The position numbers and the translations under genes were made by a program. Under the pieces are notes generated by a model. That model saw nothing but the letters and a program-made list of their open reading frames with translations. It searched no databases and was not told the DNA's origin. DNA of 64,000 nucleotides. It comes from a virus (lineage: Duplodnaviria > Heunggongvirae > Uroviricota > Caudoviricetes). This document shows, piece after piece, positions 6,606 to 63,475 of this stretch. The DNA lies in the IMG/VR virus record IMGVR_UViG_3300031566_000011, positions 17,625 to 81,624 of that record; one strand, written 5' to 3'. How positions within the stretch are numbered: position 1 is the first letter of the stretch; every line of letters starts with the position of its first letter.

Positions 6606-6626
6606 AAAATAAAAGGAAAATAAAAT

Positions 6627-44302: not shown

Positions 44303-44358
44303 TGTATATAGATGTTGTTTTATATATTTTCCAAATCATTGGCGTATAATAGAGATAC

Positions 44359-44407: not shown

Positions 44408-44434
44408 AAGTCTATAGCTCAGGTTGGTAGAGCG
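44408..44434 (+). tRNA. tRNA-Ile-like 5' half (positions 1-26)
   Basis: AAGTCTA-TA-GCTC-AGGTTGGTA-GAGC-G. D arm almost identical to the bacterial tRNA-Ile D arm. GTCTA pairs with the TAGAC of the preceding piece. Confidence 0.45.
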
Positions 44435-44530
44435 GTAAAGAGTTCTCTATTATATTGCTATATGGGTTGGAATTTTTTAAAATTAAAAGATAGATAGTGT
44501 ATAATACAAACACTTTAAAAATAAATATAT

Positions 44531-44685
44531 TGTGCAGTGGAGAAATTAGTAGCCTCTTATTGATTCGGTGTTAAGTTGCAACTAACTTGCAAGATAGAGT
44601 AACCTCTGGAACGATGAAGCTGAATACCTCTATGCCGAAGGTAAGATTCAAAGTCAGCGAGTGGGTGCAATTCCCACCTGCACAT
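44531..44685 (+). ncRNA. tRNA-like RNA A (about 155 nt) with about 90-nt insert in the anticodon region
   Basis: 7-bp closing stem TGTGCAG/CTGCACA, D-arm-like GAGA-AATTAGTAG-CCTC, T arm GTGGG-TGCAATT-CCCAC. No contiguous anticodon hairpin. Internal hairpin TTGCAA-CTAAC-TTGCAA. Confidence 0.35.
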
Positions 44686-44712
44686 AATATTTATAATAAC
44701 TCGCCAAGAAAA

Positions 44713-46070: not shown

Positions 46071-46108
46071 TAGTTCACATGCACTTGAAATATAACTAAA
46101 GGAATATT

Positions 46109-46369
46109 ATGAAAAAAAATAAAAAAGAAATATTAAAAAAAATAACAAAAACAGAAGTATTTGAAAATATCAAGAAGGCTATTTTTCTTGGTGTTATTAT
46201 TAGCTATATTTTATATTATACAGGAAATAAGAATTCATTAGATATAAAGAGTATTATTAAATTACAGGCATTTATTTATTGTTTAGATGTATTTATAGAA
46301 TATAATATAAAATATATCATTGCGATATATTCAACAATAAAAGAAAGTTTATATATTGATAAAGAATAG
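46109..46369 (+). CDS. hypothetical small membrane protein
   Basis: 86 aa with TM segment AIFLGVIISYILYYTG. Confidence 0.25.
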   Translation: MKKNKKEILKKITKTEVFENIKKAIFLGVIISYILYYTGNKNSLDIKSIIKLQAFIYCLDVFIEYNIKYIIAIYSTIKESLYIDKE

Positions 46370-46409
46370 GATTGTAGCTCAATGGTAGAGCATTACACTG
46401 TTAATGTGG
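46368..46409 (+). tRNA. tRNA-Asn(GUU) 5' fragment (acceptor-5', D arm, anticodon arm; no T arm or 3' end)
   Basis: AGGATTG-TA-GCTC-AATGGTA-GAGC-A-TTACA-CTGTTAA-TGTGG. Canonical through the anticodon arm, then runs into the methylase fragment ORF. Confidence 0.4.
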
Positions 46410-46742
46410 TGGTTGAAAACTAACAAAGATGGTTCTCCCTTCTTTGGAATAGGATATTATGCCAAGTCAAACCAAGAAGTTTGTTTATTAGCCGTAAAAG
46501 GGAAGGGGCATTCTTTAGTCAAATCAAATAGCGTGTCAAGTTTTGTTAGTACAAACAGAACTAAACATAGCGAAAAGCCACAAATATTCAGGGATAAAAT
46601 TGTTGAGCTGTTCGGTGATTTACCACGAATAGAACTTTTTGCCAGACAAAAGACAGAAGGTTGGGATGCATTAGGATTTGATATTGATGGAAAAGACATA
46701 AAAGAAAGCATACAACTACTTGCACAAAATAAATCTTTGTGA
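46404..46742 (+). pseudogene. MT-A70-family adenine methyltransferase, C-terminal fragment
   Basis: …GIGYYAKSNQEVCLLAVKGKG…KHSEKPQIFRDKIVELFGDLPRIELFARQKTEGWDALG matches the MT-A70 C-terminal pattern. The DPPW catalytic N-terminal half is absent. Confidence 0.45.
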
Positions 46743-46794
46743 TATATTGAGTGTGTTATATGGAAACCAACAATCACAAGGAGCTTGGGATGAT

Positions 46795-46899
46795 ATGAAG
46801 AAAATATTATACGATTTAAAAGAAATCTTAATAATATCGGTAATTTTAGCTTTAGCAATCGTCTATTGTTATTTAAAAATTAAAGGATTAAAATTATGA
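46795..46899 (+). CDS. small hydrophobic peptide (34 aa)
   Basis: MKKILYDLKEILIISVILALAIVYCYLKIKGLKL with RBS AAGGAG. Confidence 0.2.
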   Translation: MKKILYDLKEILIISVILALAIVYCYLKIKGLKL

Positions 46900-47023
46900 A
46901 AAAGATTTAGGATTTATCAAATATTTAATAAAGGAGAAAAATAGTATCTTAGTTTTCTAAAAAAAGGAGGTTTTAACTGCTTATGAAAATCCAACAAAAT
47001 CAAAAGAAATCGGTTGAAATCGC

Positions 47024-47224
47024 TTGCTTTTTAACCAGAAATGTAGTATATTTAAGGAGTGGAATATGAAAGTCATAAAGGTAACGAAAGAGTATTTCCA
47101 GACGGAAGACGAGAAAGTTTACTTCTTCGAGCCTTTGGAAAATGAAATATCCGTTGAGGATATGCAGAAGATTGTTGATGCAAACGAAAAGCTAGTTAAG
47201 GATTTGAAAGATGGAAGTAAATAA
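47024..47224 (+). CDS. hypothetical small protein
   Basis: 66-aa ORF with RBS AAGGAG. Overlaps the start of the following methylase gene. Confidence 0.25.
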   Translation: MLFNQKCSIFKEWNMKVIKVTKEYFQTEDEKVYFFEPLENEISVEDMQKIVDANEKLVKDLKDGSK

Positions 47225-47972
47225 AATCTACTGTGAAAACTGCATTGATACTATGTCAAAAATGCCAGATGGTTTTGTTGATGTAATAGTAACAAGTCCA
47301 CCTTATGACGGATTACGAACCTATAATGGATATTCATTTCCATTTAAGGATATTGCAAAAGAATTATTTAGGGTAACAAAAGATGGCGGCGTGGTTGTTT
47401 GGATTGTTAGCGATGCAACTGTAAAAGGTAGTGAAAGTGGAACAAGTTTTAGACAAGCATTATACTTTAAAGAGATTGGATTTAATTTGCACGATACAAT
47501 GATGTATAAAAAGATAAACTATATTCCATTAACACATAATAGGTATGAGCAGGAGTTTGAATATATGTTCGTTTTTAGCAAAGGGAAGCCTAAAACCTTT
47601 AAACCTATAATGGTTGAGTGTAAAACAAAAGGAAGGAAAACAAATGGTAGAACATTTTATCAAACAAATAGCCAAAATACGCCAACAAAAGGACATAAAA
47701 ACGATGCAGTAAAAAAATATAAGCAAAAGGGAAATGTTTGGGAAGTACCTACTAATGCAGGGACAAAAGGACATCCTGCACAATTTCCAGAACAATTAGC
47801 AAACGACCATATCCTTTCTTGGAGCAATTATGGAGATTTAGTTTATGACCCATTTATGGGCAGTGGAACAACTGCAAAGATGGCTATCCTAAACAAACGA
47901 AATTATATCGGTAGCGAAATATCAAAAGAATACTGTGAAATTGCAGAGAAGAGAATAAATGAAAATATATAA
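47211..47972 (+). CDS. DNA methyltransferase (N6-adenine/N4-cytosine, beta class)
   Basis: SPPY (…VDVIVTSPPYDG…), HPAQFP, DPFMGSGTT motifs in beta-class order. 253 aa. Confidence 0.7.
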   Translation: MEVNKIYCENCIDTMSKMPDGFVDVIVTSPPYDGLRTYNGYSFPFKDIAKELFRVTKDGGVVVWIVSDATVKGSESGTSFRQALYFKEIGFNLHDTMMYKKINYIPLTHNRYEQEFEYMFVFSKGKPKTFKPIMVECKTKGRKTNGRTFYQTNSQNTPTKGHKNDAVKKYKQKGNVWEVPTNAGTKGHPAQFPEQLANDHILSWSNYGDLVYDPFMGSGTTAKMAILNKRNYIGSEISKEYCEIAEKRINENI

Positions 47973-48576
47973 AATCACAGAAGCAAGCGAATATTTGGGA
48001 GTGTCAATCAATACACTAAAGACACTTGCCAACAACGGAAAGATAAAGTCTTTCAAGACTACTGGAGAGCATAGGCGTTTTCGTAAAGATGATTTAGACG
48101 CTTATATGGGTGTCTAGAGAGAGAAGCAAGAAAAGTTGACTGTGATTTATGCCAGATGTTCTACAGCCAAGCAGAAAGAAAATCTTGAACGCCAGAAAGA
48201 TAGACTAAGAAAGTATGCTGAAAATAAAGGATATAAATTTATCCTGATTGATGAGATTGCGAGTGGGATAAACGAGAAACGAAAAGGCATACACAAACTT
48301 ATTAAGTTATGTTTTGATGGTAAAGTTGAACGCATCCTGATTGAGTATAAAGATAGACTTGCAAGATTTGGATATGAATATCTTGATGCTATTTTCAAGA
48401 ATTTGGAAATCACGGTTGAAGTCGTTGAGACAAAAGAAAAGAGATATGAAGAAGAATTAGCAGAGGATATTATGAAAATTCTTACCTGTTATTCCGCTCG
48501 TTTTTACGGAAGAAGGGGCGGTAGAAAGAAGAAAAATACGGTTGAAAATGAGCCCGACGAATCTAATGGAATTTAA
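47959..48576 (+). pseudogene. IS607-like TnpA serine recombinase (MerR-type HTH + resolvase catalytic domain) with in-frame TAG in linker
   Basis: MKIYKITEASEYLGVSINTLKTLANNGKIKSFKTTGEHRRFRKDDLDAYMGV-TAG-REKQEKLTVIYARCSTAKQ…. One frame, TAG at 48116-18. GC-richer patch. Confidence 0.5.
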
Positions 48577-48591
48577 AAAGGAGGTTTAGTT

Positions 48592-48771
48592 ATGGCATAT
48601 TTAATTATGTTAGCAGTTTTTGTATTAGTAATTTATTTTGGATATAAAAAAATAAACTATATGAAGGAGGATGTGCTTATTGATAAAACGGTGAAAGATT
48701 ATGATACTAGTAAAAGACAACAAAAAAAATTAAAAAAAATCATTAAAAAAACAAAAAAACAAGGAGATTAA
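48592..48771 (+). CDS. small membrane protein (possible NfeD-like partner)
   Basis: MAYLIMLAVFVLVIYFGY… single TM segment, Lys-rich tail. Immediately upstream of the SPFH gene. Confidence 0.25.
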   Translation: MAYLIMLAVFVLVIYFGYKKINYMKEDVLIDKTVKDYDTSKRQQKKLKKIIKKTKKQGD

Positions 48772-48775
48772 ATAA

Positions 48776-49966
48776 ATGCTCAATTCAACAAAAGTAAAAA
48801 TAATAGTTGTAGTTACGGCTATTTTTCTAGCTATTTTTGCAGGCAAAATTTTCGAAACAAATAATTCAGGTTACTATCTAATCAAACAAGCAGCTTTAAC
48901 TGGAAAGGTATCTGCTATCAATAGGACAGGAGTAATTTTACAGGCATTTGGTAGTATTTTCAAATATCAGTTATCAGGGATGTATCATTTTTCATCAAGC
49001 AATCTAGATGGTGGAAGCGGACAAGAATCAGACCCAATTACTGTGAGATTTAATGATGGTGGAACAGCTGATGTTTCAGGGTCTATTAAATTTAAGTTGT
49101 CATCAAATAATGATAATCAAAAAGAATTACATGAAGATTTTAAAAGTTTTAGGGCTGTTCGTGTTGATTTAATTAGACAAGTAGTTGCTGAAGCATTAAT
49201 GCAAACTGCTTCTATAATGAAAGCAGAAGAATCGTATAGTTCAAGACGTGCTGAATTTACGGCATTAGTTGAAGACCAAATTAAATATGGTATTTATGAT
49301 ACTGAATTAATAGAAAAAATTACAAAGGATGCGGAAGGTAATGATTTCATTAAAAGAAGTGTAAAAATAATATATGACAAAACTGGAAAGCCTATTATTA
49401 GAAAACCTTCACCATTTCTTAGATATAAAATTGAAATTCTTCAATTTGTAATAAAAAATCTAGACTTTGATGCTACTATAGATAACTTGATTGCTAAAAA
49501 GAAAGAATCTGAACAACAAAGAGTTGTAGCAAGAGCAAATGCGGAAAAAGCAAAACAAGATGCTATCACAGCTAAAGAAGAAGGAAATGCTGCGATTGCG
49601 GTTGCAAAAGCAAAGAAAGAAGTAGAGAAAATTGAAGCGGTTACAAATGCTATGAAAGAATATGAGGTTGCTAAATATAACACATTAAAAGCTAAAGAAG
49701 AAGCGAATGCAAGATTGGTTAAACAAAGAGCAGAAGCAACAGCTAATAGACTTCTTGTGCAAGCAGGATTAACCCCTAAAGAGAGAGCGGAGTTTGCAAG
49801 GGATACTGCTATAGGTGTTGCAAAAGCAACAGCATCTTTCCAACCAGCACCAAATGCACAAATTGTTGTATTAGGTGGAAATGGTAAGGGCGGAGCTATT
49901 AGTCCATTCGAAATGCTAAACTTAAAAGCTATGAATGATATGCTTAAAAGTAAAAAGGTTTCATAA
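48776..49966 (+). CDS. SPFH/band-7 (flotillin-like) membrane protein
   Basis: N-terminal TM segment, SPFH core (…RAVRVDLIRQVVAEALMQTA…), Ala/Lys/Glu coiled-coil repeats. 396 aa. Higher-GC codon usage. Confidence 0.55.
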   Translation: MLNSTKVKIIVVVTAIFLAIFAGKIFETNNSGYYLIKQAALTGKVSAINRTGVILQAFGSIFKYQLSGMYHFSSSNLDGGSGQESDPITVRFNDGGTADVSGSIKFKLSSNNDNQKELHEDFKSFRAVRVDLIRQVVAEALMQTASIMKAEESYSSRRAEFTALVEDQIKYGIYDTELIEKITKDAEGNDFIKRSVKIIYDKTGKPIIRKPSPFLRYKIEILQFVIKNLDFDATIDNLIAKKKESEQQRVVARANAEKAKQDAITAKEEGNAAIAVAKAKKEVEKIEAVTNAMKEYEVAKYNTLKAKEEANARLVKQRAEATANRLLVQAGLTPKERAEFARDTAIGVAKATASFQPAPNAQIVVLGGNGKGGAISPFEMLNLKAMNDMLKSKKVS

Positions 49967-49980
49967 TTAATATATTATTT

Positions 49981-50140
49981 GGATATGTGGCGAAATAGGT
50001 AGACGCTAGTTGCGGTAAGATAGAACGTCTGGAAGTGTTGAATCCGAGAGCTGTTTCATGCGAAACTTTCTAACATGTTAAAATCCAGTATCTGGATACG
50101 AATCGACTATCATGCAAGGTGCAAATCCTTGCCATATCCA
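49981..50140 (+). ncRNA. tRNA-like RNA B (about 160 nt) with about 92-nt insert in the anticodon region
   Basis: Acceptor GGATATG/CATATCC+A. D arm GCG-AAATAGGTAGA-CGC (tRNA-Leu/Tyr-like). T arm CAAGG-TGCAAAT-CCTTG. Split anticodon stem AGTTG…CGACT. Insert shares AAGATAGA…CTGGAA…TGAA motifs with RNA A. Confidence 0.35.
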
Positions 50141-50166
50141 TTATTTAATAAAAAAGGAGAAATAAA

Positions 50167-50536
50167 TATGAATATAAGTTTGATGATTTATTTAGTAGGT
50201 GCAATGCATGGAATATGTGGTATTTTTACAGTTTTAAGTCTCTTGTTCTTTATAGGATTAATTATAGGAGCTGTATGTATTGACGATAGGGAGGAACTTA
50301 ATTGGATAAATAGCTTTCATTGGTATAAAAAAATCATTATTGGATTTTTATGTTTTTTTACTATAGCCTTCATGTTGCCAAGTTCTAAAACTTTATCTGC
50401 TATGTATTTAATACCTAAAATTACATCAAATGAGCAACTTAATAAAATACCTGAAAAAGCAGTGCATATTTTAAATTTAAAATTCAATCAATGGATTGAC
50501 GAGTTAAGTCCTAATGGTGACAATAAAGATGAATAA
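50167..50536 (+). CDS. hypothetical membrane protein
   Basis: From the internal Met: MNISLMIYLVGAMHGICGIFTVLSLLFFIGLIIGAV… with two or three TM segments. Track ORF 50075-50536. Confidence 0.3.
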
Positions 50537-50670
50537 TTTTATATTGTAAAAAATATGTGTAGTTAAATGAGTAAGTTAAAAATAAAAAACAAATAAAACA
50601 ATAATTTCAATATCTAATGATACTAAAAAGATATTTGAATATATTATAAATAAATTAGAAGGGGGATAAA

Positions 50671-51120
50671 ATGTCTACCAATAACACAAAAAAAGATTCA
50701 TTAAATACACAAATTGGGGGAAACCATTATTTAAAACTTAAAATGCAACCAATAGACTTTATTGTTAAAAATAATATTCCATTCATAGAAGCAAATATAA
50801 TTAAATATATAAGTAGATATGGTAATAAAAACGGCATAGAAGACCTTAAAAAAATAAAACATTATATTGAATTATCCAAACAACTCTCAATAAAAGATTA
50901 TTCGAAGTTTGTTATTTTAGATGAAATTAGAAAAGAATCTATAAAGCATCTTATAAACAATGCAACTGAGTATTGCGATATTAATAAATTTAGTGAAAAA
51001 CAAAAATTTATTATTTTGAAAACATGTTTATCAATATTAGATATTGAAAATAAATTTATTTTATATAAGTCAATAGATATTGTTGTTAATAATTTAATAG
51101 AAGAATACAAGGAGAAGTAA
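50671..51120 (+). CDS. hypothetical protein
   Basis: 149-aa ORF with RBS GGGGGATAAA. Confidence 0.25.
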   Translation: MSTNNTKKDSLNTQIGGNHYLKLKMQPIDFIVKNNIPFIEANIIKYISRYGNKNGIEDLKKIKHYIELSKQLSIKDYSKFVILDEIRKESIKHLINNATEYCDINKFSEKQKFIILKTCLSILDIENKFILYKSIDIVVNNLIEEYKEK

Positions 51121-51123
51121 TTT

Positions 51124-51309
51124 ATGGAAAATAATATATTTATTCATCAATTTCTAGATAAATGTAAGTGTAAAAAATATTTTAAAAAAAAACTTTCAAA
51201 ATTTATAGACATTATGTTCCAAAGTGAAGATTTTAATCCATTACTGATAGAATGTATAGAATTTTTACTGAAATACTTCAACTTATCATATAAATTAGTT
51301 AAAAAATAA
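51124..51309 (+). CDS. hypothetical protein
   Basis: 61-aa ORF. Confidence 0.2.
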   Translation: MENNIFIHQFLDKCKCKKYFKKKLSKFIDIMFQSEDFNPLLIECIEFLLKYFNLSYKLVKK

Positions 51310-51311
51310 AC

Positions 51312-51662
51312 GTGAAAAATAATTATAATTTTGAAGCAGATTATATATTAAAATCACCAACAGATAATTGTTATTTAGTATATAAATATAAAAAAAAATT
51401 CATACATGGTATTTGTTTCTACAAGGAAGAGTCTCAGGAATACTATATAATAATACTAAATGACATCTTTAATCATGCTTCTTTGTCTTCAATATCAATC
51501 CCAATATCTTCATTGAATAAAAAGTATTATATAATGTTTGGCGATAAATATATACAAGACTTTTATCCAAAAATATATAATAAATTACAAAAAAAGAAAA
51601 AATTAGTATATTATAGAGATAACCAAGAGGAACAAATCTATGAAGAATATAGGAAATTTTAA
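51312..51662 (+). CDS. hypothetical protein
   Basis: 116-aa ORF. Confidence 0.2.
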   Translation: MKNNYNFEADYILKSPTDNCYLVYKYKKKFIHGICFYKEESQEYYIIILNDIFNHASLSSISIPISSLNKKYYIMFGDKYIQDFYPKIYNKLQKKKKLVYYRDNQEEQIYEEYRKF

Positions 51663-52023
51663 ATCAAAAAAAATATATTATTGTAGGCTTTGTGGTATAA
51701 AGTTTTTTAAAACAGATGTTAGTAAGAATAAAGGAAATTATTGTAGCTTAAAATGTTATTATAAATCTCATGTTGAAAAAAATCATTGTATTATATGTGG
51801 TGAGAATATAACAAATAAAATACATAATTATATTGATAAGAATTGGGATAATATAATAAAATGGGATTGGAAGAAATTTAATTATGTTGTTAATATTTTA
51901 ATGATTAAACATTTTTATTTATGTGATAATTGTTTATATAATGCAAGCATGATCGGGATACATACATCCGCTATGCGTAGACGAAGAATAAAATATTATA
52001 ATAAAAACTTGACAGAAAGTTAA
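51640..52023 (+). CDS. hypothetical Cys-rich zinc-finger protein
   Basis: CRLCG…CSLKC…CIICG…CDNC. 127 aa. Confidence 0.25.
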   Translation: MKNIGNFKSKKIYYCRLCGIKFFKTDVSKNKGNYCSLKCYYKSHVEKNHCIICGENITNKIHNYIDKNWDNIIKWDWKKFNYVVNILMIKHFYLCDNCLYNASMIGIHTSAMRRRRIKYYNKNLTES

Positions 52024-52067
52024 TATAATTATATATTCAATATAAATAAATATTTAAAGGATAATAT

Positions 52068-52805
52068 ATGAGCAAAAATGAATGTATAAAAATAAACCAT
52101 ATATATAATGATGATTGTGTTAATATAATTAAAAATATTAAAGATAATGATGTAGATTTAATAGTAACAGATCCACCTTATGGCGTAGAATATGATAATA
52201 ATAAACTTTATAATGATAGCAAAAATCATGTGTTTTCTAAAGACCATATAAATTTATGGTTAAGCGAAATGTGTAGGGTTTTAAAACAAGGTAGCCATAT
52301 TTATATCTTTATTCCTACCTTAGAGGTTGATAAGTGGGTATATAATGTTAAAAAATATTTTGAATTTAAAAATATTATCACTACACAGACATATACATCT
52401 AATAGATATTTAAAAAATAACTTCAGTTTCATTTCTCAATTTGTAATTTTTGCATCAAAAGGAAAGTCAAAACCATTAAATAAGATAGACTTTATAAAAA
52501 CATCAAACTCATGGTTGAAAGATAAGCGAAATAATAATCCCAAAGAATACACATATCAATATCCTAATTTTATACAGGATATTAGAGCAAATATTAAACC
52601 AAATAGGCAATTAAAATTACAGCATCCTAACTCAAAATCAATAGATTTATGTGAAAAATTCATATTGCTTTCTTCTAATGAAAATGATATAGTATTAGAC
52701 CCTTTTGCTGGAAGTGGGAATATATTAAAAGCTGCAAAAAATGTTAATAGGAATTATGTTGGCATAGAACAGAGTAAAGAAATATTTGATAAAATAAAAA
52801 TTTAA
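52068..52805 (+). CDS. DNA methyltransferase (beta class N6A/N4C)
   Basis: DPPYG (…VDLIVTDPPYGVEY…), HPNSKS, DPFAGSGN motifs. 245 aa. Confidence 0.65.
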   Translation: MSKNECIKINHIYNDDCVNIIKNIKDNDVDLIVTDPPYGVEYDNNKLYNDSKNHVFSKDHINLWLSEMCRVLKQGSHIYIFIPTLEVDKWVYNVKKYFEFKNIITTQTYTSNRYLKNNFSFISQFVIFASKGKSKPLNKIDFIKTSNSWLKDKRNNNPKEYTYQYPNFIQDIRANIKPNRQLKLQHPNSKSIDLCEKFILLSSNENDIVLDPFAGSGNILKAAKNVNRNYVGIEQSKEIFDKIKI

Positions 52806-52867
52806 AATAGGATATTATTAATGTTTGGAGATTTTGTAAATTTAATCCTGAAAATAAGGAGTAAAAG

Positions 52868-53056
52868 ATGGGATTAATAATGTTAATTATTATATCTGTA
52901 ATAATATTTATAGCAATAATGCTATGGTTAGATTTTATTGTTAATCCATATCATCTAAGGTTGAGGGTAAATGGTAATTCTTGTGTTGGATGGATTGGTG
53001 GTGGCTGGTTGTTTGGAAAACGATGGGCAAAAACAAATAAAAGAGTTCGGTGCTAA
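52868..53056 (+). CDS. small membrane protein
   Basis: MGLIMLIIISVIIFIAIMLWLDFIV… single TM segment. 62 aa. Confidence 0.25.
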   Translation: MGLIMLIIISVIIFIAIMLWLDFIVNPYHLRLRVNGNSCVGWIGGGWLFGKRWAKTNKRVRC

Positions 53057-53449
53057 ATTTTTGCAGGCAGACTGTGATGGTGTAAATATTGAAATTATAG
53101 AAATATGAGGTGTCTTTATGCATATGGGAAATAAAAAAACTGATTTACATTCAATCCTCAAGTTAGGATTCACAAATATAAATTCAGATACAGAAATTAG
53201 AGAAATGATAATTTGTGGAAAGAAAGATTATAAATATTCAAAAGATTTATTTTTCCAATGCGAAAAATGAATAATTTTCAATTACAATTTTTGGTTATTA
53301 TTGCATTGAAATTGACAAATAGAATTTTCAAGAGGATCTTCCCCCGTATTAAAATTCATTTAAATTTTAGCATAATTAAAATATACTATAAAAATATCTG
53401 ATATATTAAAAATTATTACAATAAACTAAAATTATATAGGGAGTAAAAT

Positions 53450-55573
53450 ATGAGTTTTGATCTTATGGGAACATTAAGCAATACTTCTCTAAATAAAAAT
53501 GAATATATTACTATTTTTGAATTATTATCTAATAGTATAGAGTCTTTTCATTTAAGAAAAAACGTTGACGAAAAAATAAATCAGTTATTTATAAATATCA
53601 CTTTATCAGAAGGAGATTTTAAAAGACATAATGATGCTCTTTTTTCTATAGAATTTCAGGATAATGGTATCGGATTTAACAAAAAAGAATGGGCAGCTTT
53701 TTGTACTCCAAATACAACGAATAAACGGTTGTTTCATTGTAAAGGAATAGGAAGAATTCAATTTTGGCATTATTTTGAAAATGTTAAAATAGACAGTAAT
53801 TATGAAGAAGAGAAAAAAAAATTAAACTTAAAAACTAACATTTTAGATAATTATACAAATGTAGATAATCTAAGCCAAATAAAAGAAATTGATCAGTCCG
53901 AAAATTTAAGCACAACAATTATTCTTTTAAACCCTAAAATTTATATCAAATATGCTGAATTTTTTCAAAATTTAAAAGGGATGATTCTTTCTATGTTTTT
54001 AGTTAAATTAGTTAGATTAAAAGATTCTAATATTGATTTTTGTATAAACATTAATAATGAAATAACCATTAAGCCTGAAGATGTTCCCATAGTTTTTAAA
54101 AATAAAGCTATTGAAGTTTTTTATAGAGATATTTATACAACAGATAGGATTGCTAAGAAAGAAAATTTTAATGTTGATATTTATAAAATTGGAAAGGATA
54201 AACTTAAATTAAGCTCAAAATATGCTAAAGGACATAGTGTTTTTTTATGTGTAAAAGATATTGCCGTAAAAAACATAATAAATGAATTTGTTAATAAAAA
54301 TGTTGTAACAGCAGATATTGATGGATTTTATTTTTTAATATTTGTTAGTGATATCCTAATAAATGAAAAAAATGGTTTTTTAGAATCAAAATTAGATGTT
54401 ACTCGATATTCTTTTAATATAAAAAAATCAATTGACGATGTTGAAAATGAGTTTGGCTTTGAAGAAGGGAGTAATGAAGTTATCGTTGAAAACGATATTG
54501 TTGAAAGTTTAGAAAAATTATTTGAAAAAGAAGAAATTTTTATATTTGATAAAAAACAAAAAGAAGAAATAATGAGAGAATTAAAAGAAAATTTTTGTAT
54601 AAATTCAGATGTTATTAAAAATTCTAATATTAGAATAAAATATGGGGAAGACCCAAAAACTGTTGCAAGTAGAATTTATAAACATTTCGCAGATAATTTA
54701 GTTAATACGTTTGATAGTGTAGTAAATATAAAAGAAGAAATAGAAAAAATAGATGTTAATCCTTTAAATGAAAATTGGCGTGAAGAAATAGAAAATAAAG
54801 CGCAAAATTTAGCGAGATTAAATAATAAAGAATATAATTTATTAACTATTTCAGAGCTAATGGAGCGTTTGTGTAAGGAAAAGCTTTTAGAAAAAGCAAT
54901 AAAAGGTGAATTAGCCTATGAAAAAAATGATAACAATAAAGATGAAAGTATAATTCACAATTTATTTTTTAAACAAAAATCTAATAGTTTAATAGAAAAA
55001 AAACATGATTTATGGATGTTCAACGAAGAATTTAATTATTTCAACTATATTTCTTCAGATAAAAACTTAAGGTCTATCGTTGACCCAGATACAAAGGACA
55101 AAATTTTTGATTTTAATGATGAAAAATATCGTAAAGTATTTAATGAGTTGGGATTATCTGAAACTTACGGGGAAAAACATCGTCCAGATATAGCACTTTT
55201 CCATGAAGGGGATTCAATTGTTTTAATTGAATTTAAAGCTCCCGAAATAAAACTTCAATATCATACAAGCCAATTAATAAATTATGCAAGAATAATGGCA
55301 AATTTTATGGCTGATAAATATAAATTAATTTATAAAAAATATTATTTATATCTTATTGGTGGAGATTATGGATTATTAGACGATAGATTTAAAATAAATA
55401 AATTAATTGATGGTAGATATTTTGATAATGGAGAAATTTTAGATTTTAATTCAAACTCTAAGATTGCATCATATTATATCGAGTTAATGAAATATGACAA
55501 TCTTGAAAGATTGGTGAAAGTTAAAAATGACTTTTTTAGAAAAAAATTATTAGGGGAAGATGAGGTAAATTAA
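53450..55573 (+). CDS. GHKL-family ATPase fused to C-terminal PD-(D/E)XK nuclease-like domain (MORC/DUF3883-like)
   Basis: N-box FELLSNSIESF and G1 box FQDNGIGF near the N-terminus. C-terminal HRPDIALFHEGDSIVLIEFKAPE is a PD…(D/E)XK motif. 707 aa. Confidence 0.55.
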   Translation: MSFDLMGTLSNTSLNKNEYITIFELLSNSIESFHLRKNVDEKINQLFINITLSEGDFKRHNDALFSIEFQDNGIGFNKKEWAAFCTPNTTNKRLFHCKGIGRIQFWHYFENVKIDSNYEEEKKKLNLKTNILDNYTNVDNLSQIKEIDQSENLSTTIILLNPKIYIKYAEFFQNLKGMILSMFLVKLVRLKDSNIDFCININNEITIKPEDVPIVFKNKAIEVFYRDIYTTDRIAKKENFNVDIYKIGKDKLKLSSKYAKGHSVFLCVKDIAVKNIINEFVNKNVVTADIDGFYFLIFVSDILINEKNGFLESKLDVTRYSFNIKKSIDDVENEFGFEEGSNEVIVENDIVESLEKLFEKEEIFIFDKKQKEEIMRELKENFCINSDVIKNSNIRIKYGEDPKTVASRIYKHFADNLVNTFDSVVNIKEEIEKIDVNPLNENWREEIENKAQNLARLNNKEYNLLTISELMERLCKEKLLEKAIKGELAYEKNDNNKDESIIHNLFFKQKSNSLIEKKHDLWMFNEEFNYFNYISSDKNLRSIVDPDTKDKIFDFNDEKYRKVFNELGLSETYGEKHRPDIALFHEGDSIVLIEFKAPEIKLQYHTSQLINYARIMANFMADKYKLIYKKYYLYLIGGDYGLLDDRFKINKLIDGRYFDNGEILDFNSNSKIASYYIELMKYDNLERLVKVKNDFFRKKLLGEDEVN

Positions 55574-55596
55574 ACTCATCATTAAAAACAAAAACT

Positions 55597-56998
55597 ATGA
55601 ACAATAAATTAAACCTAACCGATAACGAAAAACGAGACATTATAAAATATTTAGAACAAGGTAAACCTTTGCCTGAAAAATATCGTTTTTTACTTTTTGA
55701 TAGTGACCGAGAAGTTGAGCTTTTATGGAACGGCAAAACTGATGAGGTAGAAAATACAGTTCTGCCTTTTCAAACTATCGAACATATTGACGAACCACGA
55801 AGCGAAGAAAAAATCACTAATCAATTTGAACTTTTCGACTCTTCAGGAAGACAGATAAAAGGTTGGACGAATAATTCAGTCATCCTCAAAAGATGGTGAT
55901 CTTATAGCTGATTTCTTTTGTGGTTCAGGCACAACATTAGCAGTGGCGGAAAAGTTAGGCAGAAAATGGATTGGCACAGATTTAGGTAGATTTTCTATTC
56001 ACACCACAAGAAAAAGAATGATCGGAGTCCAAAGAGAACTCAAAAATAATAGTAAAAATTTTAGAGCATTTGAAATTTTAAATATTGGTAAATATGAACG
56101 AGAAAAATTTTTGACTGTGAATGAAAATCTTAGAGAAGAAGAAAAAAGAAAGCAAAGAGAAAACAAAGAAAAAGAATTTATAAAACTTATTTTATCAGCC
56201 TATAAAGCAGAGCCGATAAATTCATTTAATAATTTTGTTGGAAAAAAAAGAGATAGATTAGTGGCTGTTGGACAAATAGATACTCCTATTACAAATAATT
56301 TTTTGCAAGAAATAGTTAGTGAGTGTATGGATAAGAAAATATCAAAAGCGGATGTCTTGGGTTTTGATTATGAAATGGGGATAGATTTTGAATCAGCAAA
56401 AAAGATGGGTATAGATGTGCAGTTCAAAGTTATCCCAAGAGAAGTTTTTGATAAAAAAGCAGTAGAGAAAGGGCAAGTGAAATTTTATGATGTTGCATAT
56501 ATCGAGGTCAAGCCAATTATTCGTGGACAAGTCAATGCAAAGGAAATCGCAATTGAGCTTGTTGATTTTTCGGTTTTTTATAATCAAGACAATACAGGAG
56601 AAGTAGAACAAAAATTGAAAGCTGGCGGCAGTAAAATCATTATTGAAAATGGACAAGTTATTAAAATTTCTAAAGATAAACAAACTGATATAATTTCTAA
56701 AGAAATTTTAACAAAAAAATGGACAGATTGGATTGATTATTGGTCAGTGGATTTTAATTTTGAAAGCAAAAAAGAAATTATCCGTGTTATTGACGAAAAA
56801 ACTGGAGAAGAAAAAGAAGAATGGACGGGTAGTTATATTTTTGAAAACGAATGGCAATCGTTTAGAACAAAAAAAGATCGAACATTAGAACTTATTTCAT
56901 CTTTTAAAGAAGTTTCAAAAGGAAAGAGAAAAATTGCAATTAAAGTAATAGATATTTTTGGAAATGATACAACCAAAATAATAGAGGTTAATATATAG
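55597..56998 (+). pseudogene. Type III Mod-like adenine methyltransferase with internal out-of-frame deletion (DPPY region lost)
   Basis: ORF1 (55597-55899) has the Mod-like N-terminus …ELLWNGKTD…LPFQTIEHIDEP…KGWTNN. The other frame resumes …KDGDLIADFFCGSGTTLAVAEKLGRKWIGTDL (motif I) and a long C-terminal tail ending …IDIFGNDTTKIIEVNI. The catalytic motif IV is absent and the frames abut at about 55880-55895. Confidence 0.5.
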
Positions 56999-57017
56999 TG
57001 GTTAAAGGATTATATTT

Positions 57018-57191
57018 ATGGCACTACACAAAGACTTTCCAAAAAATAAATTTCAAATATTAGATCCATCAATTAGATGGTTTCCTGCTGATGAAGATTT
57101 AAGAAAAGAAAAAGGTTACGAAAAACTTTTGCCTCCTTTCGTGCCAGAATTACGAAAACAAGTGGCTGATTGGCGAAAACGGAAAAATTAG
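57018..57191 (+). pseudogene. short N-terminal fragment of a helicase/restriction-subunit-like gene (remnant)
   Basis: MALHKDFPKNKFQILDPSIRWFPADEDLRKEKGYEKLLPPFVPELRKQVADWRKRKN*. Resembles, from memory only, the N-termini of helicase subunits encoded after such Mod genes. The ORF ends after 57 aa. Confidence 0.2.
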
Positions 57192-57269
57192 CCTAAAATG
57201 TAATTATAAAGATGGAAAATTAGTTTGAAAATTGGATAATAATTATAAAACCTATTAATACAAAAAATC

Positions 57270-57773
57270 ATGATGGAGAAAAAAATGTCTTTAATACTTT
57301 ATACCTTTTTATTATTTTGTGGCTTACAAAGCTCTTTAATGCTTCCTAATTGGCACATTACGCCTGAGCAAGACACGCAACTTGAATGTAATGTTGATGT
57401 TTTTGATTGGGAGCTTTTATTAGATGCTTTACAAGATAAGGAATCTGATAATATTCCTAATGCAATTAATGTTATAGAAGATGCTGTGGGAATATTACAA
57501 ATAAGACCAATATATTTAAAAGATATAAATAGGATTATAGGATATAAAAGATATACATTAAAAGATAGATATGATATAATAAAATCAAGAGAGATGGTAA
57601 GGATATTTTTTTCATATTATGTAGATGATGAAAATATAAATGAAATTATTGCTATGCACTGTTCTGGACCAAAAGGAAAAGAAAAGTTAAAATATAATAA
57701 GCTCGTGATGCATTATGTTGATGATGTTTTAAAGATAAGAAATAAATTAATTATGGAGAATAAAAATAAATGA
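57270..57773 (+). CDS. hypothetical secreted protein (weak lytic-transglycosylase-like motif)
   Basis: Signal-like N-terminus MSLILYTFLLFCGLQSSLM. …IEDAVGILQIRPIY… loosely resembles the SLT E-S/GLMQ motif. Confidence 0.25.
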   Translation: MMEKKMSLILYTFLLFCGLQSSLMLPNWHITPEQDTQLECNVDVFDWELLLDALQDKESDNIPNAINVIEDAVGILQIRPIYLKDINRIIGYKRYTLKDRYDIIKSREMVRIFFSYYVDDENINEIIAMHCSGPKGKEKLKYNKLVMHYVDDVLKIRNKLIMENKNK

Positions 57774-58828
57774 TAAAATTAATTCATGGTGATTGTTTAA
57801 ATGTTTTAAAAAAGATTGAGAGTGAAAGCATAAACTGTGTAATAACTTCACCACCTTATTGGAATTTAAGAGATTACCAAACAGATTTATGGGAAGGTGG
57901 AAATATAGACTGCGATCATAAAATACCAATTAACGAAGTTGATCCTAAAAATCCGCAAGGCACAAGCCATAATGTAAGATTTATCAAAGAAAATTGTTAT
58001 AAGTGTGGTGCTAAAAGAATAGATAAACAAATTGGATTAGAGTCTGATTTTAGAACATATATTATAAATTTATGTGATATTTTTGATGAGATTAAAAGAA
58101 TATTAAAAAAAGATGGGACATGTTTTGTTAATTTAGGTGATACTTACATGAATAATAGTAGTTATTCAAACAGTGGCAGGCAAGGTTATGGTAACGATAA
58201 AATAGGAATGATTTATAAAAAAGACAATAAGGTATCCGAAAAATCTTTATGCTGTATCCCAGATAGATTTAAAATTGAGATGGTAGATAGAGGATGGATT
58301 TGTCGTAATGAAATTATTTGGAAAAAACCTAATTCTATGCCAAGTTCCGTAAAAGATAGATTTACATGTGACTTTGAGAAAATTTTCTTCTTTACAAAAA
58401 GTAAAAAGTATTGGTTCAAACAACAATTAGAACCATATGTAAAACAAATTAATAGATGGGGTGGAAATAAATTAAAATCAAATGGAAAAAGTGATTGGGA
58501 TAACGGAACTGGACAAAATACTTATAGATATAGAAATTTAAGAACAAATGATAATGGTAGAAATAAACGATGTGTATGGAGTATCCCAACACGTCCTTTT
58601 AAAGGTCAACATTTTGCAACTTTTCCAGAATTACTTATTGATCCAATATTGAAAGCTGGATGCCCAGAAGATGGAATAGTTTTAGATTGTTTTTTTGGTG
58701 CAGGCACAACAGGTGTAGTAGCTAAAAAACAAAACAAAAGGTGTATAGGAATAGAATTAAATAAAGAATATATTAAAATTGCCAAGAAAAGAATTAAAAA
58801 TACACAGGTTCAAGAAGAATTATTTTAA
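57770..58828 (+). CDS. DNA methyltransferase (beta class N4C/N6A)
   Basis: SPPYW (…INCVITSPPYWNLRDY…), HFATFPELL, DCFFGAGTT motifs. 352 aa. ATGA overlap with the previous gene. Confidence 0.7.
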   Translation: MIKLIHGDCLNVLKKIESESINCVITSPPYWNLRDYQTDLWEGGNIDCDHKIPINEVDPKNPQGTSHNVRFIKENCYKCGAKRIDKQIGLESDFRTYIINLCDIFDEIKRILKKDGTCFVNLGDTYMNNSSYSNSGRQGYGNDKIGMIYKKDNKVSEKSLCCIPDRFKIEMVDRGWICRNEIIWKKPNSMPSSVKDRFTCDFEKIFFFTKSKKYWFKQQLEPYVKQINRWGGNKLKSNGKSDWDNGTGQNTYRYRNLRTNDNGRNKRCVWSIPTRPFKGQHFATFPELLIDPILKAGCPEDGIVLDCFFGAGTTGVVAKKQNKRCIGIELNKEYIKIAKKRIKNTQVQEELF

Positions 58829-59791: not shown

Positions 59792-62700
59792 TTATTTTAT
59801 TTTATTCAATATTTTATTTATTTCTTCGTCTTTATTTATATACCAATCTCTCGGATGAATATTTATAATATTCCAACCATTTGATGTGAAAAACATTGAT
59901 TTATAATAATATTGTTCTAGTATACTATTATTTTTATTAGTATTCAAGCAAAAATCTATTCCTAAAACATATTCTTGTTTCTGTTTATCGTATATCGCTA
60001 AATCAATTTCACTTTTAGAAGATCCCAACCCTGAAAATATGCAATATTTATCTTTATCTAAATGATTTAATATATCTTCACTCATTGTTTTTACAATATC
60101 ATCTTTTTTAACATCAACAATATCAAATCCAGATATATCATTTAAAATCACATTAGATAATTTAGTATCATTGTTTGAAATTGCAAAACAATATTGTAAA
60201 TATTTTTTCAATAACCTAGGTGCTAAGTTTTCATTTTTTATTTGTAATTGATTAGGATAGATAGAAGTCACAATATAAATCTTTTGTTTAGCTCTTGTGA
60301 TTGCTACATTTAATCTATTTATTCCACCATCTTGATTAAATGTCCCAAATCTATTATACATCATTCCTTCTCCATCTGGTGCATATCCTACTGAAAATAT
60401 AATAATATCCCTTTCGTCGCCTTGGACATTTTCAATGTTTTTTATAAAAATACTTTTATCTTCATTGTCTTTAATTTTAATTAATTCTTTTTCATAGAGC
60501 TTTTTAAATCCAATATCAACCAATGCCATATCTTCTAATTTATCTATAACTAAATCTCTTTGTGAAGAATTAAATGTTATAATACCTAATGTTTCATCAT
60601 TTTCTCGTTCTTTAAGTATCTTATAAACCAAATCAGCAATTCTTTCGGCTTCTGCCTCGTTTTGCCTTTTTATCCATTTACCATCTATCTTTATCACTTC
60701 TATAGGAGCATGATTTATTTTTAAACTAGGACAAACTTCTAATTTGCAATCATAAAAAGAATGGTTAGAAAAATCTATAAGTTCATTATATTTTGATCTA
60801 TAATGATAATTTAAATGTATGCTAGGATAATTTATTTTTGCAATATCTAGTAAACTTTCTTGTTCAACTGAGGCAATCATTTCTTCTTCATCATCAATTT
60901 CTTCTTTAATTTTGCCAACCTTGTTAGGCTGTAATTGCTTGTCATCACCAGCAATTATTATTACTTTACCTCTGTATATGCTAGGTATAGCTTCCTCAAT
61001 AAACATTTGTGAGGCTTCGTCAAACACAATAACATCAAACAAGTTTTCTTCTAGTGGGAATATATTGGATACATTCTCTTGATTTAATAACCAACAAGGG
61101 AATCTGTTAAAAACTTCATCTTTGAAATTTGTAATAAAATCTCTAATACTCCATAATTGTCTTTGTTTTCCTGCTTGATAAGTAAAATTTTTACTATATT
61201 CATTATTATTTTCAGCACCTAATATGAAGTTAGTTGTTAATCTATTCTTTTTATCTTTAAGCATTTTTAAATCTTGGATAATAAAATTTGTTTGTTCACC
61301 ATTGGATACTTTATATTTTCTTTCTATTGCTTCTATATGATGATTTAAGAATATGTCAATAAAATTATCAACATTAAATTCAAACTCATCCACATCACAT
61401 TTATAACAAATTTCTAAAATATGTTTTATATCATCCTCTACAACACCAGCATCCCAATCAAATAAAGATTTAAATTTTTTGTATGCTTCGTGCATATTAC
61501 CAGCATGTTCCATTGTTTTAAATATATTAAAAACTTCTTTATCCATACCATCCATACATACCTCTAAAGAATATTTATTATCAAATATTGTGTTATAAAT
61601 ATTTACAACATCTGTTAAGTTTTTATAGTTATTTTTGTATGTATTATAATCTTTTTTACAATTAATAACTGCTTTTAATATAAAATTTAACAACTTATAC
61701 CACTTAATACCTTTTAAGCTACCCTTTAAAAGCCCATAGTAAGCTCTGGTGAAGATTATTTTCATTCTATGCTTATTATCCTTCAAATTATAATAAACAT
61801 CCTTAAAGCCTTCATATGACTTTGTATTTGAATATGTAGTTAATTCTACATTTGAGCTATTTAAAGTATTTAAGATTTTGTCTTTATTGTTTATAAATTC
61901 ATTTTTTTTAATTAAATTGAAATCATCCTTTATATATTCGAAGCACGGATTATCTATTAAATTTTTCTTATATTGTAAATAAGGAAATAAATATTTGTTT
62001 TTTATATTTTTTATATTATTCTTTAATGTCTCAAAATTTTTATTTTTATATAAATTTAATATTGAGTCATAATGTGTATCCCCAGCCCTGTCTTGTATAA
62101 ACTCTTTATAAAATCTAAATCTTGGATCTTTTACATTTTCAATTCTATCTGTAATTAAATATATTTCTTTTAAATACAAATCCAATATCATCTCATTGTT
62201 AATGCAAGATAGAGCATTTTCTAATTCTTTTTCATTTTTTTGAATTTCAATTTCTAGTGCATCTATTTCTTGTGACGCTTGATAATTTACTTTATTTCTA
62301 ATATTTAAAACCTTTTGATAAAACTCTTTTTTTCCTTTAAATATATCCGTTATATAGCAAATCTTATCTTGAATAACATTTAATCTATTATATACCACGT
62401 CTAAAGCTGATTTTTTTTGTGAGACCATTAGCACTCTTTTCCCCTTAGCTATATGAGAAGCTATTATATTCACTATAACTTGAGACTTCCCAGTTCCAGC
62501 TGCACCATATATTACTAAGTTGTTTTGCTTATGCGTTTCCTCAACTACTTTATTTTGACTATAATCTAACTCGTTTAAATATAATGGTTTTTTATACAAA
62601 GTATTACATTCCTGTTTTTCATCAGTTGTTACTATTAATTTTCTAAGAGCATCGCTTGTTAAATTTTCTTTATTTTCTAATTCTTCGTAGTCTTCATAAA

Positions 62701-63475
62701 TAGAATTAGAAATTGGGAATTGCCCTAAAACACAATGATTCTTAAAAATAAGTTCATTATTTTTATAAACAGGAGTTTCTTTTTTTGTGTAAGGAATAAA
62801 AGTTTCTATATCATCTCTAACACCAGTATCTTGTATATCTATTCCTAGTTCTTTGTAATAATCTAAAACATTCTTTATAATATCACCATTGAAGTCTAAT
62901 AGATTATCAAAAGATCCTCCATTGATATTTAATTTTATTCCATTATAATGCTCATATCCCTTTATAAATACTTTATTGTGAAGAATATTTTGTGATGAGT
63001 TTATATTTTTTAAATTCCAATCAAAACCGCTCTTTATAATCTCTACTGGGAATAAGAATAAAGGACATCTAATAAATGTTCCATCTCCTAAACACCCCTC
63101 AACAAAAGGATAGCCAACATATAAATTATAAATACCTGTTTCTTTAAGTTTATTATCAACTTCTCGTTTTAAAGATTTTATATTATTATCTAATGCTTTT
63201 ATGGTTTCATCTTCTTTATTTTTAGAGTTAAATAAATGTATGATACTATCTTGCCTATTTATAATTTTTGGTAATATATTTTGTATTTCAGAATTTTTAT
63301 GATACAATAAACTTAAATCAAATGCTTTTGTATTTATAATACGATTTGACTTTAAGCTACGATTTCTACCATCAATACTAATTAATCTTTTTTTATATTT
63401 TTCAAGTATTCCTTTCATTATACACCCACTATTTTTTTTATATTTATTCATTATTCCCACTTTAAATTTTAGCAA
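59792..63475 (-). CDS. SF1 (Upf1/DNA2-like) helicase with C-terminal PD-(D/E)XK / DUF559-like nuclease domain
   Basis: Walker A VIYGAAGTGKSQVIVN. Motif VI-like NRLNVAITRAKQKIYIVTS. C-terminal …SEIDLAIYDKQKQEYVLGIDF…GWNIINIHPRDWYINKDEEINKILNKI endonuclease-like tail. 1227 aa. Confidence 0.6.
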   Translation of the reverse strand: MLKFKVGIMNKYKKNSGCIMKGILEKYKKRLISIDGRNRSLKSNRIINTKAFDLSLLYHKNSEIQNILPKIINRQDSIIHLFNSKNKEDETIKALDNNIKSLKREVDNKLKETGIYNLYVGYPFVEGCLGDGTFIRCPLFLFPVEIIKSGFDWNLKNINSSQNILHNKVFIKGYEHYNGIKLNINGGSFDNLLDFNGDIIKNVLDYYKELGIDIQDTGVRDDIETFIPYTKKETPVYKNNELIFKNHCVLGQFPISNSIYEDYEELENKENLTSDALRKLIVTTDEKQECNTLYKKPLYLNELDYSQNKVVEETHKQNNLVIYGAAGTGKSQVIVNIIASHIAKGKRVLMVSQKKSALDVVYNRLNVIQDKICYITDIFKGKKEFYQKVLNIRNKVNYQASQEIDALEIEIQKNEKELENALSCINNEMILDLYLKEIYLITDRIENVKDPRFRFYKEFIQDRAGDTHYDSILNLYKNKNFETLKNNIKNIKNKYLFPYLQYKKNLIDNPCFEYIKDDFNLIKKNEFINNKDKILNTLNSSNVELTTYSNTKSYEGFKDVYYNLKDNKHRMKIIFTRAYYGLLKGSLKGIKWYKLLNFILKAVINCKKDYNTYKNNYKNLTDVVNIYNTIFDNKYSLEVCMDGMDKEVFNIFKTMEHAGNMHEAYKKFKSLFDWDAGVVEDDIKHILEICYKCDVDEFEFNVDNFIDIFLNHHIEAIERKYKVSNGEQTNFIIQDLKMLKDKKNRLTTNFILGAENNNEYSKNFTYQAGKQRQLWSIRDFITNFKDEVFNRFPCWLLNQENVSNIFPLEENLFDVIVFDEASQMFIEEAIPSIYRGKVIIIAGDDKQLQPNKVGKIKEEIDDEEEMIASVEQESLLDIAKINYPSIHLNYHYRSKYNELIDFSNHSFYDCKLEVCPSLKINHAPIEVIKIDGKWIKRQNEAEAERIADLVYKILKERENDETLGIITFNSSQRDLVIDKLEDMALVDIGFKKLYEKELIKIKDNEDKSIFIKNIENVQGDERDIIIFSVGYAPDGEGMMYNRFGTFNQDGGINRLNVAITRAKQKIYIVTSIYPNQLQIKNENLAPRLLKKYLQYCFAISNNDTKLSNVILNDISGFDIVDVKKDDIVKTMSEDILNHLDKDKYCIFSGLGSSKSEIDLAIYDKQKQEYVLGIDFCLNTNKNNSILEQYYYKSMFFTSNGWNIINIHPRDWYINKDEEINKILNKIK

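Follow-up and report, generated by a model that had tools for sequence, protein, structure and literature searches.

The window analyzed here is a 64,000-nt stretch of phage DNA, corresponding to positions 17,625-81,624 of the IMG/VR record IMGVR_UViG_3300031566_000011 (Caudoviricetes), with a G+C content of 27%. An earlier note on this DNA (hereafter, the original prediction) had described a decayed MORC-type restriction-like locus at 53450-57191, in which an apparently intact ATPase-nuclease gene stands next to its dead cognate methylase. Four open reading frames (ORFs), all on the plus strand, are found at the coordinates given there, namely, 53450-55573, 55597-55899, 55943-56998 and 57018-57191. 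The first encodes a GHKL ATPase-nuclease of 707 amino acids (aa), and the other three belong to what is left of a type III restriction-modification (R-M) operon, i.e., a mod gene for the methyltransferase and a res gene for the restriction subunit. The features of the locus are as follows, where L016 is a locus carrying related Mod and Res proteins:

53450..55573, plus strand: intact gene for the 707-aa GHKL ATPase-nuclease, paraMORC3-like and with the architecture of VcSduA
53450..54034, plus strand: GHKL (Bergerat) ATP-binding domain, about residues 1-195, with E24/N28, D71-G73-G75, G99-G101 and T155
54035..54454, plus strand: beta-rich middle domain (transducer/S5-like), about residues 196-335, borders approximate, from the secondary structure of the predicted model
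54455..54979, plus strand: helical linker, about residues 336-510, borders approximate, with helices at residues 347-506 in the model
54980..55570, plus strand: PD-(D/E)xK nuclease domain of the HsdR-N/RecB type, about residues 511-707, from the alignment of conserved residues
55597..55899, plus strand: N-terminal type III Mod remnant of 100 aa, 86% identical to residues 1-95 of the 699-aa L016 Mod
55868..55875, plus strand: deletion junction, 8 nt CGAATAAT, from the sequence, its three-frame translation and tblastn
55868..56998, plus strand: C-terminal Mod remnant, equivalent to residues 324-699, 83-88% identical to full-length Mods
57018..57191, plus strand: type III Res stub of 57 aa, with 54 homologous codons of about 890, 84-85% identical to the start of the L016 Res

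The 707-aa gene has a GGGAG ribosome-binding site 7 nt 5' of its start codon. Its product contains the Bergerat N and G1 boxes named in the original prediction, FELLSNSIES (residues 23-32) and DNGIGF (residues 71-76), as well as the C-terminal endonuclease motif HRPDIALF (residues 577-584) and IEFK (residues 593-596). When 20 full-length homologues (22-42% identical) were aligned, E24 and N28 of the N box, D71, N72, G73, G75 and F76 of G1, G99, G101 and R102 of G2, T155 of G3, and D580, E594 and K596 of the nuclease were invariant. The 39 more distant members (17-25% identical) keep E24, N28, D71, G73, G75, K92, G99 and G101, together with E499, H503, W522, D580, E594, K596, Q608 and Y612, and the window protein carries every residue conserved in this 39-member alignment, including the Q608xxxY612 motif. 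The quoted motifs fall on invariant columns even though the aligned members share just 17-42% identity with the window protein, so that they reflect conservation and not chance. All four GHKL motifs, the N box (ExxxN), G1 (DxGxG), G2 (GxxGxG-like) and G3 (T), are present, the conserved residues of the nuclease part are E499, H503, W522, E526, D580, E594, K596, Q608 and Y612, and the protein appears to be catalytically intact as judged from these residues.

The Bergerat fold and the transducer domain are also seen in the predicted structural model, of which 255-278 residues, the middle domain included, align to the ATPase modules of MutL-N, MORC2/3 and SMCHD1. The comparisons of the model with known ATPase modules are as follows:

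TRAP1/Hsp90: score 15.1, 316 residues
SMCHD1: score 14.7, 274 residues
MORC2: score 13.1, 278 residues
MutL: score 12.4, 255 residues
Topoisomerase II/IV ATPase: score 12-13, 224-277 residues

At the sequence level, the whole 707-aa protein taken alone gave a sub-threshold Pfam match to HSDR_N only; a search of PDB sequences yielded no more than marginal matches to Hsp90, topoisomerase VI and HsdR. A scan of the family was more informative, with HATPase_c matched by 15 and HSDR_N by 13 of the 20 members. The isolated C-terminal domain of the window protein matched HSDR_N with an E-value of 1.3e-5 and 25.6 bits (gathering threshold 25.1), as did the isolated nuclease domains of 15 of 20 relatives, and the nuclease-domain profile aligns D-ExK-QxxxY to the EcoR124I HsdR nuclease, bearing out the PD-(D/E)xK assignment. 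DUF3883, which had been suggested for this protein, did not turn up in any scan. We also rejected an rIIA-like reading, as the BFVD matches cover the GHKL part only, with template modeling (TM) scores of 0.22-0.30, and there is no match to an rIIA PHROG. The 707-aa protein combines a GHKL ATPase, a transducer-like domain, a helical linker and an HsdR-N/RecB-type PD-(D/E)xK nuclease.

Among known GHKL proteins, this family fits paraMORC3 in architecture, motifs, distribution and context, the match being one to the description in those sections of Iyer, Abhiman and Aravind 2008 (PMC2292703) that were considered here. According to these sections, paraMORC3 combines GHKL and S5 with a C-terminal RecB-like nuclease of the restriction endonuclease (RE) fold bearing E-D-ExK motifs, it is prevalent in Proteobacteria and Bacteroidetes and often standalone, and paraMORCs are linked to R-M operons (PMC2292703). 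The window protein likewise has an intact N-terminal GHKL domain, an S5-like middle part and a C-terminal RE-fold nuclease with E-D-ExK, and its family is spread sporadically over Proteobacteria and Bacteroidota, often standalone and sometimes in R-M operons; it differs in that the window copy sits in a phage. On the other hand, the MORC label of the original prediction does not hold in the strict sense: a regular expression for the MORC-specific S5 motif GhXhhpXXRhl, as given in these sections, matched none of the 39 family members, and both strict MORC proteins and MutL differ from the window protein, which has another nuclease domain and no operon association with a superfamily II helicase.

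The same layout is found in VcSduA, the type I-D (GHKL) Shedu protein of Vibrio cholerae, a GHKL ATPase fused to a DUF4263 PD-(D/E)xK nuclease, the single gene of which protects against phages (Adams et al. 2025, PMC12137116). Either E27A or K557A abolishes the protection, there were no signs of abortive infection, and proteins with a VcSduA-like domain organization were "previously annotated as paraMORC3" (PMC12137116); GHKL-Shedu proteins have been placed under type 1D by Gu et al. Compared by architecture, the window protein shares this layout (E24, K596), and its nearest nuclease fold may be that of Shedu, though its nuclease scores as HSDR_N and not as DUF4263. The SduA_C/DUF4263 profile (PF14082) did not match the window protein, either whole or as an isolated domain, nor any of 39 full-length relatives at E<=0.01, and the PADLOC Shedu models matched neither the window protein nor its relatives. 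As it fails the defining DUF4263 profile test, we call the protein paraMORC3-like on its sequence and do not count it as a demonstrated member of Shedu.

A word-indexed search returned 28 relatives and gave the impression of a rare family, which was overturned by an exhaustive profile search with its 3,591 cluster representatives at E<=1e-3 (1,357 of them at E<=1e-30), almost all of which are 660-750 aa long. Named members come from Bacteroidota and Proteobacteria and are annotated as "hypothetical protein" or "ATP-binding protein". Scanning one genome per species gave 215 matches, mostly in Proteobacteria and Bacteroidota, with other phyla scattered. No homologue was found by tblastn in 50,697 deposited phage genomes, and about 10 full-length copies occur in IMG/VR contigs that resemble prophages. 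In 10 prophage-like loci, the gene is flanked by repressors, integrases, Abi_2, AbiC, PIN and toxin-antitoxin genes, none of which recurs as a partner. The homologue closest to the 707-aa protein, at 41% identity, stands alone. Six loci were looked up singly: one lies in an integrase/Prim-Pol island, two are solitary chromosomal genes, one belongs to a Bacteroidota conjugative element, one comes directly after an MmeI-like enzyme and beside MazEF, and one overlaps its neighbors, with the gene of an N6 methyltransferase on one side and that of a BsuBI/PstI endonuclease on the other.

ORFs to either side of the family gene were then clustered for 78 genome loci, of which 26 have R-M genes within 3 kb of it; about two thirds of these loci have no R-M neighbor or recurrent partner gene. 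Five loci (L076, L080, L124, L136 and L148) have the order hsdM-hsdS-[family gene]-hsdR, confirmed by Pfam, with the family gene at about 5001-7100 in each. In four others (L101, L107, L108 and L133, also Pfam-confirmed), the gene follows type ISP/IIG enzymes. An MmeI-like neighbor defines a cluster of four loci (L074 checked by Pfam as representative), and a D12 methyltransferase neighbor a cluster of three (L098 likewise). The family is thus usually standalone cargo of islands and mobile elements, with about one third of the copies embedded in R-M operons of several types. This fraction, including the hsdS-X-hsdR slot, provides a testable lead on a 2008 prediction that was never followed up; neither this placement nor the type ISP adjacency is spelled out in the sections of PMC2292703 considered here. 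The window copy also establishes phage carriage for a large family that is missing from PADLOC, PHROGs and NCBIfam and has the architecture of a validated anti-phage nuclease.

In the classical prr locus, hsdS and hsdR flank PrrC, an ABC-ATPase-like anticodon nuclease that is set off by inhibition of the type I enzyme. This slot of PrrC/"rlo" is the one in which relatives of the 707-aa gene are found, a likeness of position only, as PrrC is unrelated to the family. One could accordingly regard the family as a second-line, PrrC-like guard coupled to R-M enzymes, the phage copy of which either lost its partner or monitors a host enzyme. The hsdS-X-hsdR loci agree with such a role, as do the type ISP/IIG, MmeI-like and type II systems adjoining the family gene elsewhere. 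However, two thirds of the loci lack an R-M neighbor, VcSduA works alone, the heterogeneity of the partner types argues against a specific protein-protein interface, and defense genes cluster anyway. We regard the guard role as unlikely.

Downstream of the 707-aa gene, tblastn against the 699-codon L016 Mod placed residues 1-95 at 55597-55881 in frame 1 and residues 324-699 at 55868-56995 in frame 2, with DNA identities of 82% (left block) and 79% (right block). The two methylase pieces therefore lie in different, abutting frames, just as the original prediction had read them. Its further claim of an internal, out-of-frame deletion that removed the catalytic core holds as well, with two amendments: about 228 codons (residues ~96-323) rather than about 200 are missing, and the lost motif IV reads DPPF (IDPPFDV in relatives) rather than DPPY. 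In the N-terminal remnant, codons 1-93 are homologous, after which 7 out-of-register codons lead up to a TGA; in the C-terminal remnant, the frame is open from 55871 (375 aa), and the first in-frame start is GTG at 55943 (351 aa). Because the 8 nt CGAATAAT at the junction fit the end of the left homology as well as the start of the right one, the deletion is seamless and flanked by microhomology. Moreover, since the cut falls inside the Rossmann fold and not at a domain border, an accident is favored over a designed truncation.

What remains of Mod includes motif I, FxGxG (DFFCGSGTT, 55910-55936), and a conserved C-terminal region of about 300 aa, and what was deleted includes motif IV and the variable specificity region, leaving no frame in the window Mod that contains both motifs. 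Accordingly, only positions 174-214 of 221 in the N6_N4_Mtase profile remain, i.e., the last 41 around motif I. A PADLOC search of the island, as had been proposed, returned MTase_III (PDLC03633, positions 304-616 of 616, E 3.8e-52) for the C-terminal Mod piece and nothing for the 707-aa protein. The closest relatives of this Mod, 83-88% identical and from Patescibacteria-type metagenome bins, are full-length unless they lie at contig ends. The mod gene is dead through a seamless, out-of-frame internal deletion flanked by microhomology.

The 57-aa ORF was rightly recognized as a cut-off gene start, its first 54 residues being about 85% identical to the beginning of an 890-aa ResIII plus RE_endonuc protein that comes after Mod in L016. 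DNA homology to Res ends at 57190, the helicase and endonuclease domains are gone, and tblastn found no further Res homology elsewhere in the window. The pieces resemble type III systems (EcoP15I-like, Mod2Res) of the Patescibacteria branch, with 83-88% protein and about 79-82% DNA identity and the Mod-then-Res order kept. They differ from these in that the window Mod is frameshifted and lacks residues ~96-323 (motifs IV-VIII and the specificity domain), and Res has 54 of about 890 codons. With the Mod core and nearly all of Res missing, neither methylation nor restriction is possible.

Among 25 IMG/VR loci, at least 17 have an uninterrupted Mod and then an uninterrupted Res, directly or after a small inserted gene, and L020, L071 and L072 likewise have intact Mod-then-Res. 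A methylase conserved as two ORFs, which would have undone the reading as a deletion, is thus not what these loci have. We rejected two apparent cases of such a split: the 324-326-aa "MIGVQ..." proteins stem from genes called at the edges of contigs, and the broken Mod of L019 is due to a scaffold gap of N. In L070 (324-2505), Mod was broken independently, with residues 3-170 and 339-699 in different frames and no Res. Decay is hence common in this Mod family, and the arrangement in the window is unique.

Several variations were noted in these relatives. L070 has an unrelated 117-aa ORF between the Mod pieces, and NYN and WYL genes in place of Res. The otherwise intact 699-codon Mod of L016 has an in-frame TGA at 9951-9953, where all relatives have Glu (YIFEN*WQSF), and the same is seen in L017 and L018, which like L016 are Patescibacteria-like contigs; a nonsense mutation might explain it, or else recoding, if the genetic code of the lineage is altered. 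The short stretch between Mod and Res takes up different insertions, harboring a Bro-N gene in L016-L018 (10105-10926 in L016), a 170-aa ORF in L020 (5715-6227) and two small ORFs in L071 (1164-1839), with Res directly after Mod in the window and in L072.

The original prediction took the 707-aa protein to be the nuclease cognate to the dead methylase. Because a Res stub directly follows Mod, the cognate nuclease was instead the type III Res. What survives of the proposed link is that the family often lies in or beside R-M operons, and the adjacency seen here repeats the pattern of one third of the relatives and may still mean something. The locus might nonetheless be one decayed MORC-type system, with the 707-aa ATPase-nuclease as the restriction part once paired with this Mod, a view in line with the same strand and the 23-nt spacing between the 707-aa gene and the Mod remnant, the R-M adjacency of the family, the homologue that overlaps its methyltransferase and BsuBI/PstI endonuclease neighbors, and the tie between paraMORCs and R-M operons made in the sections of Iyer et al. 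(PMC2292703) considered here. Against it, Mod has a Res of its own, none of the intact relatives of the Mod-Res pair is preceded by a GHKL gene, no type III Mod adjoins the family gene in any of the 95 other loci, and the MORC S5 motif is absent; a single system is in our opinion quite improbable. An independent arrival of the nuclease and the cassette in the accessory region of the phage is more likely, a region that also holds five methyltransferases, TnpB, a small resolvase and a Hhe/ProA-like helicase-nuclease.

Between the relic and every relative compared, the proportion of synonymous differences (pS) is 0.60-0.72, i.e., saturated, and that of nonsynonymous differences (pN) is 0.07-0.09, versus 0.04-0.08 between intact pairs. 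The G+C content at third codon positions (GC3) is 0.19 in the relic, 0.32-0.38 in the Patescibacteria relatives and 0.137 in the 707-aa gene. Based on these pN/pS values and GC3, the cassette would have been under purifying selection for long in an AT-rich lineage, either a phage or an unsampled host, and would have been inactivated recently relative to its divergence from the relatives.

It has to be asked whether the phage retains what is left of Mod and Res as dominant-negative decoys, by which the homologous type III enzyme of the host would be poisoned. The most conserved parts (the N-terminal 95 aa and C-terminal ~375 aa of Mod, and the N-terminus of Res) do survive together with their native starts, secondary stops are absent, the ratio of nonsynonymous to synonymous substitution rates (dN/dS) is 0.03-0.06, and host-like relatives are 83-88% identical. 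However, the cut runs through the Rossmann fold and leaves motif I without motifs IV-VIII, the C-terminal piece has no obvious start or ribosome-binding site, its first start being the GTG at 55943, and no second phage with the same arrangement was found among the 25 IMG/VR loci. Furthermore, with synonymous sites saturated, the low dN/dS reflects mostly the history before the deletion; together with the lack of extra stops, it would fit a recent decay, and nothing requires continued constraint on the fragments. We consider decoys highly unlikely. A broader proposal, which also seems very unlikely to us, is that the GHKL-HsdR-N family is an R-M-coupled sentinel, and that the phage copy and the Mod/Res fragments act in counter-defense or inter-phage conflict. 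If so, the insertions between hsdS and hsdR and beside type ISP, IIL, II and (here) III systems would be functional, and the phage copy and fragments would not be junk but might, for example, act on the homologous type III enzyme of the host by sensing or poisoning it.

Since it encodes a tail sheath, baseplate hub and wedge, a tail fibre, a primase-helicase and an NrdD-like protein, we take the window to be part of the genome of a tailed, myovirus-like phage. A blastn search against deposited phages found no relative of the region. Besides the dead Mod, five methyltransferase ORFs lie within 14 kb in the accessory region 43457-58828, one more than the minimum of four that had been noted before. 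These and the other ORFs of interest in this region are as follows:

43457-44095: N6_N4 methyltransferase ORF
44826-46055: IS605-type TnpB
46404-46742: MT-A70 ORF of 112 aa, short, which may itself be truncated
47211-47972: N6_N4 methyltransferase ORF
48136-48576: small resolvase
48776-49966: Band_7 protein
52068-52805: N6_N4 methyltransferase ORF
57770-58828: N6_N4 methyltransferase ORF

The abundance of methyltransferases raises the possibility that the 707-aa protein is an offensive tool of the phage, which would degrade unmethylated DNA of the host or of competitors, with the phage DNA shielded by at least five methyltransferases of its own. DNA modification can indeed suppress Shedu activity (bioRxiv 10.1101/2023.08.10.552793), and the gene is intact, has a strong ribosome-binding site and lies in a run of same-strand genes. 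Yet the 50,697 deposited phage genomes contain no homologue, and the relatives are carried as cargo by prophages, by conjugative elements and in chromosomal islands, near Abi, toxin-antitoxin and integrase genes. As this is the signature of a defense gene and not of a core phage function, an offensive role appears unlikely.

The explanation that we favor, with moderate confidence, is that two separate things lie side by side at this locus, an autonomous ATP-gated nuclease and a non-functional type III relic. Both are known kinds of genes rather than a new kind of system, and current ideas are not overturned. The domains and catalytic residues of this little-studied 707-aa family are observed, and its mechanism is one that we infer: by analogy, the protein most likely acts in the manner of VcSduA, with an ATP-gated dimeric clamp in control of a DNA nuclease. 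On the model of GHKL clamps and of VcSduA, it would dimerize via its ATPase domains, ATP binding and hydrolysis would gate the C-terminal nuclease, and the nuclease would cut foreign DNA, making the protein a putative autonomous defense- or exclusion-type nuclease carried as phage cargo. Autonomy is suggested because about two thirds of the 78 genome loci and all 10 prophage-like loci have no recurrent partner, and because VcSduA protects alone. As for the relic, a mod-res operon captured from a bacterium, the nearest intact relatives being in Patescibacteria genomes, was inactivated by two deletions, one that removed Mod residues ~96-323 (motif IV and the specificity region) and one that removed all of Res beyond codon 54. 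The simplest view of what is left is that it has no function and is decaying.

Several observations weigh against this explanation. Taken alone, the 707-aa protein has no HATPase_c, PADLOC, PHROG or NCBIfam match. As SduA_C/DUF4263 is undetected in it, the transfer of the VcSduA mechanism is an analogy, and the isolated domains of its relatives match SduA_C weakly in 2 of 20 cases (best E 0.0027). The R-M embedding of one third of the relatives could mean dependence on, or monitoring of, an R-M system. The relic has no extra stop codons and an overall dN/dS of ~0.03-0.06, although synonymous sites are saturated and the composition has shifted. Finally, the three other metagenomic contigs that carry the locus are all 100% identical to the window over 7-20 kb, so that they amount to a single independent sample.

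The type III relic is a clean, datable case of a phage capturing, and then losing, a host R-M system, and it points to a likely Patescibacteria host. The Mod-Res relic (55585-57190) is 79-82% identical in DNA to contigs with Patescibacteria, Magasanikbacteria or Portnoybacteria proteins. A 134-aa fragment that is 95% identical to the C-terminus of the 707-aa protein is deposited as "Candidatus Paceibacterota". The host of this phage is probably a bacterium of the Patescibacteria (candidate phyla radiation, CPR), for which few phages are known to us.

Three further ORFs in the window deserve mention. Right after the Res stub, a 167-aa ORF (57270-57773, plus strand) has a lipoprotein-like signal peptide and a weak match to SLT (lytic transglycosylase; E 0.029), and shares 4 nt with the beginning of the methyltransferase ORF that comes next. 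At 59792-63475 on the minus strand, a 1227-aa protein combines DUF4011, a superfamily 1 helicase (AAA_11/AAA_12) and an MTES_1575 nuclease, and resembles the anti-phage proteins Hhe, ProA and PDC-S37 (PADLOC E 1.4e-120; NCBIfam ProA E 5.7e-129, below cutoff); this helicase-nuclease is a second defense-type gene on the phage, 2.6 kb from the 53450-57191 locus. Lastly, in a 1625-aa ORF on the minus strand (28159-33036), only residues ~1254-1621 match an NrdD-like anaerobic ribonucleotide reductase, and the first ~1250 residues may hold inteins or a fused domain.

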